Origin: Flectonema sp. DT1601 | Taxonomy: Eukaryota | Length of the DNA: 64,000 nt | Direction of reading: 5' to 3' | Assembly: GCA_964019425.1 (NCBI GenBank) | Contig: OZ025793.1 | Coordinates: forward strand, 1,054,001 to 1,118,000 | Shown: positions 17,679 to 19,403 of the stretch, piece after piece | Layout of the letters: each line of letters opens with the position of its first letter | Numbering within the stretch: the first letter of the stretch is position 1 | Notes under the pieces: model-generated | Databases searched by the model: none | What the model was told of the DNA's origin: nothing | Seen by the model: only the letters and a program-made list of their open reading frames with translations | Translations under genes and position numbers: made by a program

Positions 17679-19403
17679 ATGCCTCTGTGTAGTATTTGCA
17701 ACACACCTGCGCTTTCTGGGGTTTGTAACAGCTGTAGTAACACCCCAGCGTGTGGGAGATGCCGAACGCTACTCTCTTCCATTGAAATAAAGTGGAGAAC
17801 CGGTCTTTGTGATAACTGCTACACTAGTAAGCCTAGTCATCAACCACAGTGTGGATTATGTAACGCAAACTTAACACATAAAGAACAAGGATATCAAACT
17901 GGTTTATGCGACACCTGCCATGACAAGAAAACAGCAGCAAAACAACAGCAAATTCAACAACAGCTTACTGATAAAGTTAAGGGAAGACTAAGTACCACAT
18001 GTGATTCATGCCAAAGTGCATCACCAGATTCCATTAAAGCAAATGGTCTGTGTGATACCTGCCGATCTAATAAAGTAATGCAAGTAATCCCGACAATAAC
18101 AACTGTTAGAAATCTTTCATTAGAAGATGTGGCTTTTTGTATTTCCACAGGAACATTGCCGCCGGATGCGAAATTTCCTGAAACGGTGTACGGAAGAGTT
18201 CACTGCTATCGAAATGATACGACGGTTGACAAGATAAGTAAAGGAACTATATTACCAAATGATAGGCCGACTACTTTTGTTTTAGGCCCATCAGGTTTAG
18301 AAACTTGTGTAGGCAAGCGCTTTGACGCCCTGACAGCAGCAGGTTTGTCAAAGGAACATGTGGTCTCTCAGATTCAAAAAAAACGTATGTTTGGAATGTT
18401 ACTTTTTGAAACTCAACCAAACTTATGTCCCATTACTGCCGACTGGAGTGGACTATGGTCTCTTTGCAAACATCATTACCCAGCAGTGTGGAAACTGTTA
18501 CAGATTCACACTACGTACCTGTCAGCTGTTAGTTGGCAAGACTTGAGTGACGGTCGGTTTAAAGAAACAGTCACAGCCGCATTGAAGTGTGGCCTGTCAC
18601 CTTCTGCTGCATACTTGGCATCAAATAATACTGCTCTTGATGCAAGGATGTGGCTTGCCTATGAAATCTATTGTTCAGAGCTTTACACAGGCAACGGTTG
18701 GACTGTTGACGATAATGGTAAAAGACAGCTGAAAGAGTATTTCGTAAACAATGCTCCATTGTCAATGGTAAAGAACTGGAAGTGGGTTGAAATTCCTGTA
18801 TCGTTGTCCGAAGCAGCGACAGCACCTGCACCTCAAACATGGAGCATGCAGAAAAAGAATTGCGAACTCGTTGAGGTTCAGAGAGGTACGGCAGAGTTTA
18901 ATTCAGTAGTAGCACGCATGCATGAAACTTTATCTAAAACTGTATTGAAGATTGAGAGAGTTCAAAATGTTATGTTGTGGCAGAATTATTGTAATGAAAA
19001 AGAGCAGGTGTCACGTTGGAATGGAAAACCTGCACGCGAGCTTCGACTCTTTCATGGAACGTCTTCTGCGAGTCCTGATTGTATCTACGCTTCACAAACG
19101 GGTTTTGATATGAGGTTTTGTAGATCTGGTCTTTGGGGGATAGCTGTATACTTCGCTCAGAATGCAGCATATTCTGACTCTTACAGCTACCAGAATGGTC
19201 CTCACCGTCAATTCTTTCTCGCATCTGTCATAGTTGGAGATGCCTATCAATGCTCTACCGATGGATCACTGCGAATGCCTCCATTAAAGACAGGAACTAC
19301 TACTCGATATGATTCTGTAACTGGGAACACTGGAGGCAGTGACGTGTTTATGATTTACTCAAATGGAAGAGCTTACCCTGAATATTTAATAACATATCAG
19401 TAG
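17679..19403 (+). CDS. Zinc-finger protein with uncharacterised central domain and C-terminal PARP (mono-ART type) catalytic domain
   Basis: Four CxxC...(G)(L/V)CxxC units. PARP motifs: KIERVQN..LW, LFHGT (19053), GFD, GxAVYFA (19149), YSDSY, VIVG, YDSV, YPEYLITY. Confidence 0.9.
   Translation: MPLCSICNTPALSGVCNSCSNTPACGRCRTLLSSIEIKWRTGLCDNCYTSKPSHQPQCGLCNANLTHKEQGYQTGLCDTCHDKKTAAKQQQIQQQLTDKVKGRLSTTCDSCQSASPDSIKANGLCDTCRSNKVMQVIPTITTVRNLSLEDVAFCISTGTLPPDAKFPETVYGRVHCYRNDTTVDKISKGTILPNDRPTTFVLGPSGLETCVGKRFDALTAAGLSKEHVVSQIQKKRMFGMLLFETQPNLCPITADWSGLWSLCKHHYPAVWKLLQIHTTYLSAVSWQDLSDGRFKETVTAALKCGLSPSAAYLASNNTALDARMWLAYEIYCSELYTGNGWTVDDNGKRQLKEYFVNNAPLSMVKNWKWVEIPVSLSEAATAPAPQTWSMQKKNCELVEVQRGTAEFNSVVARMHETLSKTVLKIERVQNVMLWQNYCNEKEQVSRWNGKPARELRLFHGTSSASPDCIYASQTGFDMRFCRSGLWGIAVYFAQNAAYSDSYSYQNGPHRQFFLASVIVGDAYQCSTDGSLRMPPLKTGTTTRYDSVTGNTGGSDVFMIYSNGRAYPEYLITYQ

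Follow-up and report, generated by a model that had tools for sequence, protein, structure and literature searches.

A Flectonema PARP protein contains a central domain of predicted ART-type fold and possible NADase activity that belongs to an apparently unlisted family

The window, by which we mean the whole 64,000-nucleotide stretch of Flectonema sp. DT1601 DNA analysed here, is eukaryotic, and its plus strand carries 23 of the 24 ORFs of at least 150 aa. One of these, P0001, is a single open frame encoding three consecutive parts (Table 1), and all of the motifs quoted in the first-pass annotation are present within it: YGR at aa 171 (18189), GTILP at aa 189, TFVLGP at aa 199, AGL at aa 221, MLLF at aa 240, ELYTGNGWT at aa 334 (18678) and KEYFVN at aa 352, with the codon of Glu353 at 18735-18737. 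The N-terminal array, in which CxxC pairs 2-4 terminate in GLC(D/N/T)xC, is predicted from its cysteine pattern to form zinc fingers; no Pfam family matched it above threshold, the nearest being zf-C4pol (E 9e-4, 19.9 bits against a cut-off of 28.9). GC is 0.42 and GC3 0.31-0.37 across the three parts of the ORF, and the central domain alone (GC 0.42, GC3 0.37) resembles its surroundings, seven neighbouring genes having a GC3 of 0.28-0.37. An origin of the gene by contamination is not supported, since it is flanked by eukaryotic genes of similar GC.

Table 1. Coordinates in the window of the PARP-containing ORF, its domains and the conserved elements of the central domain.
Feature	Coordinates	Strand	Description
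ORF (P0001)	17679..19403	+	Single open frame, 574 aa: C4 finger array, central ART-fold-like domain, PARP domain
Putative zinc-finger array	17688..18062	+	Four CxxC pairs, aa 4-128, eight CxxC motifs
Central domain	18108..18806	+	aa 144-376; member of a ~225-aa family; predicted ART-type six-strand core
Strand 1 (aa 170-177) and Arg178	18186..18212	+	Arg173 conserved; Cys176 opposite the family's second Arg
Arg196 and strand 2 (aa 198-202)	18264..18284	+	Arg196 invariant; Phe200 where the family has Met
Helical insert, ~95 residues, between strands 3 and 4	18411..18698	+	Conserved Trp256, Tyr267-Pro268, Arg323, Glu334
Signature E-L-[FY]-x-G-x-G-[YFW]-T-x4-G-x5-E	18678..18740	+	Glu353 on strand 5
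PARP12/15-type catalytic domain	18828..19397	+	His459, Tyr491, Val556; predicted mono-ADP-ribosyltransferase

Several other features of the window were recorded. The gene upstream of P0001 (12112-17403, plus strand) encodes an ankyrin-NACHT-pentapeptide-WD40 (NLR/STAND-like) protein. Between its ankyrin and NACHT regions (aa ~420-570), an R...S-T-S...E-x-E pattern resembling R-S-E ARTs can be picked out by eye; aa 401-600 gave no Pfam, NCBIfam or PDB sequence match. If this pattern is real, two adjoining genes would encode three ART-type domains. Two adjacent and similar protein-kinase ORFs (33276-34223 and 35168-36202) have like terminal sequences, the shared end possibly lying at an intron, and one gene of the window matches three bS6m mitoribosome chains in trypanosomatid entries of the PDB, pointing to a euglenozoan source. 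About 12 kb (49460-61340) contain no ORF of at least 150 aa and have a strong AT skew, down to -0.22.

The C-terminal domain matches the Pfam PARP family (E 5.5e-15), and its best PDB matches are human PARP12 and PARP15 (E 3e-25). His459 and Tyr491 align with the His and Tyr of these enzymes, and Val556 lies opposite their Ile/Leu. The alignment, with its hydrophobic third residue, supports the earlier proposal that His, Tyr and a Val at the PARP1 Glu position predict mono-ADP-ribosylation, and we accordingly describe the domain as a predicted mono-ADP-ribosyltransferase. The Flectonema protein is like PARP12 and PARP15 in this His-Tyr-hydrophobic triad and differs from them in its N-terminal partners, which are the C4 finger array and the central domain, whereas those of PARP12 and PARP15 are CCCH/WWE domains or macrodomains. 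Profile comparison of the central domain with the PARP domain of the same ORF found no similarity (probability 0.3%), so an internal duplication of the PARP domain is not supported as the source of the central domain.

As a single query, the central domain retrieved only itself in a word-based protein search among sequences of near and longer lengths. It found no relatives in the ESM Atlas or among PDB sequences, no match in Pfam, PHROGs, NCBIfam or PADLOC, and nothing in phage and plasmid tblastn searches or in viral contigs. Relatives were recovered with a loosened, degenerate DNA pattern covering the stretch up to and including Glu353, which occurs once in the window and in none of 100 shuffles. 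The pattern matched one viral contig and 36 genome loci, 35 of which encode relatives; the locus L012 was rejected as a chance motif match. The family alignment then retrieved 53 proteins and 47 metagenome loci, and in its final form it comprises 97 rows, the window copy and 96 relatives, with two split reading frames (L003, L016) omitted. As a check on circularity, we built a profile from 34 prokaryotic and phage homologs, leaving out both the window sequence and the columns of the search motif. This profile gave the central domain 46.2 bits, compared with a maximum of 5.7 in 2000 shuffles, and the likeness of the central domain to the family therefore exceeds chance. The full family profile gives 95 bits.

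The resulting family of ~225-aa domains is apparently unlisted. No Pfam family matched more than one of 35 rows of the family alignment, no NCBIfam family more than two of 97 and no PHROG more than one of 97; the TNT Pfam family did not match it, and a search of 177,635 PDB sequences with profiles of 35 and 97 rows gave no match to a NADase at E<=10. An ESM Atlas search with a phage relative, from a poor query model, stayed below a TM of 0.35 throughout. Our literature search found no account of the family or of its link to the gene cassette described below: sections 3.3.1, 3.7.1 and 3.8 of PMC9503650 contain none, and the family is absent from the compared parts of a Legionella ART survey (10.1101/2024.07.30.605764). 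It may already be listed in the astARTe set, the supplements of PMC9503650 or subscription papers.

The pattern and alignment searches together yielded relatives in bacteria, archaea and viruses, with 83 loci for a comparison of gene neighbourhoods. According to record titles, the family occurs in CPR bacteria, Melainabacteria, Asgard archaea and a few other groups, and its viral members lie on a complete 253-kb viral contig, a second viral contig and a giant-virus MAG (L094), whose copy is 54% identical over 237 aa to that of a metagenome contig (L077). It is rare, with one occurrence in 400 further genomes sampled from one phylum and three in 200 from the phylum of the Asgard locus. Apart from the window copy, this family set, in which distant and eukaryotic relatives are under-sampled, contains no member from a cellular eukaryote. 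The window copy shares ~22% overall identity with the family. Its branch in a tree built by a quick method is very long (5.8 changes per column), and by path it is nearest to Melainabacteria rather than to the giant-virus-like rows, a position that a branch of this length prevents the tree from fixing.

Some relatives have features of their own. The giant-virus MAG gene (L094:2056-3726) encodes a 556-aa protein with the family domain at its C-terminus and an HD-type motif (FFHDIG), without a profile match, in its N-terminal part; it adjoins genes for a D5-like primase and an IBR protein. The contigs L059, L077 and L081-L083 are metagenomic and of low GC (19-25%). The copies on L059 and L077 begin with a Tyr/Lys-rich leader that recurs at 20 further viral loci, of which half are named as giant-virus MAGs. 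Several relatives (L003/L055, L016, L092 and L093) contain stops or shifts of frame, which may reflect either decay or errors of assembly.

Conservation within the family is concentrated in a few residues. Arg196 and Trp256 are identical in all 96 relatives, Arg323 is Arg in 95 of 95, and Arg173 is replaced only by Lys (R 90, K 6 of 96). In and around the C-terminal signature, Glu334 is Glu in 91 of 96, Gly338 and Gly340 are each Gly in 95 of 95, and Glu353 is Glu in 93 of the 94 relatives with a residue at that column, figures that are biased upward in the ELFxGDGxT segment through which most rows were chosen. The 62 rows not selected on Glu353 still have Glu in 59 cases, with two truncations and one Pro. 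The Arg and Glu of the first-pass annotation are thus both maintained among homologs, and Glu353 is the predicted catalytic residue. Two details of the first-pass annotation fared less well. The GT of GTILP is not a conserved motif, the family having D (74 of 96) and P (70 of 96) there, and Arg173 is probably not the canonical first-strand residue. Strand 1 of the family reads G-R-I-I-R-G, and its second Arg (R 91, H 3, K 2 of 96), which is followed by Gly, is the better candidate and likely corresponds to the canonical ART R/H-G position.

It is at this second Arg that the window copy departs from its relatives. An Arg or His ends strand 1 in known ARTs, and the family has R, H or K there in 96 of 96 relatives; in a gap-free alignment Cys176 occupies this place in the window copy, and Arg173 and Arg178 lie close by. 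A two-residue shift that uses Arg178 scores ~10 BLOSUM units better before gap costs and needs two gaps. Given Cys176, the activity of the window copy may be weakened. On strand 2, where the family consensus is V-M-L-M-G, the window copy has Phe200 in a column that is Met in 87 of 96 relatives, and S-T-S is absent from the family. The position two residues before Glu353 is L, V, M or I in 89 of 96 relatives rather than Q or E, and the Q/E-x-E motif is likewise absent.

An AlphaFold2 model from the 97-row alignment reached a pLDDT of 91.6 and a pTM of 0.87; the single-sequence prediction had a pLDDT of 34. Core strands are predicted at model residues 27-34, 55-59, 94-101, 198-200, 206-214 and 224-229, with the mostly helical insert of ~95 residues separating strands 3 and 4 and Glu353 falling in strand 5 (206-214). 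Structure searches with this model, as had been suggested for the domain, gave a divided answer. Foldseek returned nothing from the PDB or BFVD at E<=0.001; the sub-threshold BFVD rows include four ART-PolyVal entries (ranks 4, 10, 13 and 48), and a second comparison over 459 Foldseek chains is led by four ART-fold rows with Z of 2.8-3.0. VIA-align, run against 48,161 chains, favoured the ART fold with a best Z of 5.0, which is below the level that the tool calls trustworthy alone and below the Z of 7-8 that is typical for models without a clear match. ART-fold rows account for 18 of the best 20 among these chains, as assigned by title or, for five of them (ranks 1, 6, 7, 10 and 18), by a fold that we take to be ART-type.

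The first four VIA-align rows are close in score. Rank 1 is Agrobacterium 6b (3AQ3; Z 5.0, rmsd 4.5, 105 aligned, 8% identity), presumably also of ART-like fold, which comes from an unrelated context and is tied with the NADases. It is followed by Rhs1-CT (6XTD; Z 4.9, rmsd 3.3, 93 of 132 residues), SPN (3PNT; Z 4.9, rmsd 3.7, 125 aligned, the longest) and Tne2 (6B12; Z 4.8, rmsd 3.6, 95 of 119 residues). After Tne2 come PltA, CC0527, Tpt1, CopC, Vis, pertussis toxin, TreX, Scabin, ParT, CNFy D4-5 and DarT, and the transferases score 1-2 Z lower than the leading NADases. A clearly unrelated structure first appears at rank 20 (Z 3.1), and rank 9 is also outside the ART count. Tse6, TNT and AfNADase are not among the best 50 rows, which excludes nothing. 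The helical insert makes up 40% of the model and plausibly depresses these scores. Read from the ends of the aligned ranges (model 231 with Rhs1 1473, model 232 with Tne2 408) rather than from a residue-level superposition, Glu353 would fall on Gln1452 of Rhs1 and within one residue of Gln387 of Tne2. The leading matches are thus of the ART fold rather than another, including Tne2 and Rhs1-CT, at low Z. Among the hallmarks of ARTs, the split six-strand beta-sheet is weakly apparent (Z at most 5.0) and the strand-5 Glu/Gln is provided by Glu353. We regard it as quite probable that the model is right in ordering its six core strands as in ARTs and in assigning Glu353 to the fifth of them.

Examination of the gene neighbourhoods, in 61 non-redundant groups (90% identity) of the 83 loci, revealed a recurrent association with NAD salvage. 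Seventeen groups have the family domain fused to a nicotinamidase-like domain (15 found by regular expression, with L011 and L067 added from a motif table); in L016 the fusion is divided between two frames. For the fused domain, the matches are to a solved nicotinamidase at E 4.6e-4 and to NCBIfam PncA at E 7e-5, the latter below cut-off, and in one relative found by whole-genome search instead of the motif, visual inspection also shows nicotinamidase-like motifs in a C-terminal domain. No N-terminal extension in the 83 loci exceeds ~90 aa, and the 21 C-terminal ones are 19 nicotinamidase-like domains and two copies of one CinA-like domain (L017:4425-5783 and L072), a weak match (Pfam E 0.01, NCBIfam E 0.001) that is a possible second NAD-salvage deamidase partner. 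All 16 fused rows of the tree lie within one 52-row branch (support 97), and the fusions are therefore not independent events. Neighbouring genes include kinases in 19 groups, PP2C in 18 and vWA-like proteins in 15, the last being so named for a DxSGS motif, which 7 of 17 proteins have, and not for a profile hit. NAD-related neighbours are NrtR (9 groups), NadE (3), PncB (3), a nucleotidyltransferase/NAD kinase (4) and PnuC plus NadR (2). NADAR and ADP-ribosylglycohydrolase are each found in two groups, the latter directly downstream in L064 and also in the L052 cassette. Altogether 21 groups have some NAD gene and 40 have none nearby, several of these on short contigs. Downstream genes vary by lineage, and no immunity gene is common to the 83 loci.

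The prokaryotic relatives, mostly nicotinamidase-fused, are thus at home in a nicotinamidase-vWA-PP2C-kinase cassette of the kind seen in NrtR-type NAD-salvage operons (YegI/YegK/YegL-like), three examples of which (L006, L015 and L028/L031) carry two family copies each. Outside this cassette, the domain stands alone in Asgard archaea, Melainabacteria and viruses. On the complete 253-kb viral contig (L085, 8211-20473), a stand-alone phage copy directly precedes NadE, and PncB, PP2C, kinase, isochorismatase-like and vWA-like genes lie nearby, so that the whole cassette is present in dispersed form and may represent a phage nicotinamide-salvage route. At L090:6-716, in a genome of the same phylum as the Asgard locus, a Sir2 gene is found immediately upstream of a stand-alone domain.

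The fold, the strand-5 Glu and the NAD gene context together make NAD+ cleavage the likeliest chemistry for the family. We describe it as an apparently new ART-fold family that may have NADase activity, and the Flectonema protein likely carries a second NAD-consuming domain beside its PARP domain. Our preferred explanation, held tentatively and with somewhat less than even confidence, is that the family domain is a regulated NADase and that the protist protein uses it as part of a combined defence effector. In prokaryotes, the domain would cleave NAD+ under regulation, the released nicotinamide being removed by the fused nicotinamidase and recycled via PncB/NadE, and the ADP-ribose product being sensed by NrtR, which is a known ADP-ribose sensor (PMC9503650, section 3.8). 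The protist lineage probably gained the domain by horizontal transfer. There, it is conceivable that the zinc fingers dock the protein on a target, that the PARP domain mono-ADP-ribosylates the docked target, and that the central domain drains NAD+ as a defence effector. Hydrolysis would be consistent with the strict NADases among the closest structures, with the absence of S-T-S and Q/E-x-E, and with the parallel to SPN.

Several observations sit uneasily with a NADase. The best Z is only 5.0 and Foldseek was blank, Glu353 is a transferase-type residue, as in canonical ARTs, where Tne2-type NADases have Gln, and the window copy has Cys176. NadE and PncB beside the phage copy would make a free-running NADase wasteful, the family lacks a common immunity gene, 40 of the 61 groups have no nearby NAD gene, and the ADP-ribosylglycohydrolase and NADAR neighbours hint at reversible modification. 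Some of these points would suit an ART-fold transferase with an R-(M/F)-E triad, which would ADP-ribosylate a defined substrate, for instance the cassette-encoded kinase, vWA or PP2C protein or a nucleic acid, with the insert binding the acceptor and the nicotinamidase relieving product inhibition. Trp256, Arg323 and Glu334 are conserved within the insert, and nicotinamide inhibits cholera-type transferases but not TNT or SPN (PMC6398120, Table 1), which would explain the nicotinamidase fusion. We nevertheless consider a transferase somewhat unlikely, because the leading structural matches are NADases, because neither Q/E-x-E nor S-T-S is present, and because eraser genes occur in only 4 of the 61 groups. 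A more radical departure, in which a common beta arrangement resembles the ARTs by chance and the family is folded differently and does something else in the NAD-salvage cassette, would fit the low Z, the blank Foldseek search and the absence of any sequence match to an ART profile or structure. It appears quite improbable given that one fold fills 18 of the best 20 of 48,161 chains, that strand order, strand-1 Arg and strand-5 Glu all fit an ART, that four ART-PolyVal entries appear among the weak BFVD rows, and that the NAD gene context is independent evidence.

A further alternative concerns the protist copy alone, which could be a weakened or dead pseudo-enzyme of an enzymatic family, binding NAD+ or ADP-ribose or regulating the adjacent PARP domain. 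Its Cys176 stands where all 96 relatives have R, H or K, and it has Lys235 for a family G (89 of 96), Lys303 for D (79 of 94) and Ala327 for Y (88 of 95), on a very long branch. Yet Arg173, Arg196, Trp256, Arg323, Glu334, Gly338, Gly340, Thr342, Gly347, Glu353 and Asn358 are all kept, and their retention at ~22% identity implies selection on the protist copy; Arg178, moreover, may substitute for the Arg of the Cys176 column. We think such a weakening or loss of function unlikely. Of similarly low probability, in our view, is a bolder reading in which the family is an ART clade of its own, its active site Arg-Met-Glu and its insert a helical gate, that generates ADP-ribose under regulation. In CPR bacteria and large phages it would be the missing signal source of the cassette, its ADP-ribose activating the NrtR regulon to which it belongs and its by-product being cleared by the fused nicotinamidase. 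Asgard archaea and giant viruses would have acquired the domain as it spread, and a euglenozoan protist would have joined it to PARP to form a zinc-finger-guided immune effector with two different, active NAD+-consuming ART domains.

The family would represent an ART-fold lineage overlooked by present profile libraries, distinguished by its uncommon set of active-site residues and its large insert of helices, and ranging across CPR bacteria, Asgard archaea, phages, giant viruses and one protist. A conserved kinase/phosphatase/vWA/nicotinamidase cassette with a previously unexplained connection to NAD gains in it a candidate component for NAD+ cleavage, and this connection becomes testable with a 225-aa protein. 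A eukaryotic polypeptide with two unrelated ART-fold domains would directly exemplify the recruitment of prokaryotic NAD-conflict modules into PARP-based defence.

Comparison with known ART-fold enzymes places the family near, and outside, the Tne2-type toxins. A Gln is strictly conserved in Tne2 (Q387), Tse6 (Q413), TNT (Q822) and Rhs1 (Q1452) (PMC10539506, PMC6398120), whereas the family has Glu at the position deduced from the range ends. The likeness to these enzymes comprises the predicted palm-type beta core (93-95 residues aligned for Tne2 and Rhs1-CT), a glycine-rich segment before the strand-5 residue, the lack of S-T-S, and a hydrophobic or aromatic residue on strand 2. The glycines before Glu353 recall the glycine cradle of TNT, in which glycines lie ahead of the catalytic residue (PMC6398120). 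At the candidate position of their essential aromatic stacking residue (Tne2 F330, Tse6 W344, Rhs1 F1386), the window copy has Phe200 and 87 of 96 relatives have Met. The family differs from all of these toxins in its helical insert, its double size and its lack of sequence similarity, and it is fused to nicotinamidase-like domains or PARP rather than to Rhs/PAAR carriers with a common immunity gene. Of the features of R-S-E clade transferases, both the S-T-S on strand 2 and the Q/E-x-E are missing from the family. SPN of Streptococcus pyogenes is comparable in its catalytic Glu, its lack of S-T-S and its extra helical subdomain. The helical linker subdomain of SPN has been tied to the loss of transferase activity and suggested to exclude protein acceptors (PMC3795565). 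SPN has His273 and Glu389-x-Glu391, is secreted and has an inhibitor, IFS, whereas the family has Arg (Cys in the window copy), a hydrophobic-x-Glu and a cytoplasmic context. Tne5 illustrates that ART-fold domains with non-canonical sites can be NADases (PMC13285283). The original assignment to a Tne2/Tse6-like ART-fold NADase therefore holds as a structural likeness in the model (Z 4.8-4.9) and fails as family membership, in view of the Glu in place of Gln, the lack of a sequence match and the lack of a toxin-carrier context; the central domain would work like a NADase of the Tne2, Rhs1-CT or SPN type without being a member of the Tne2 family.
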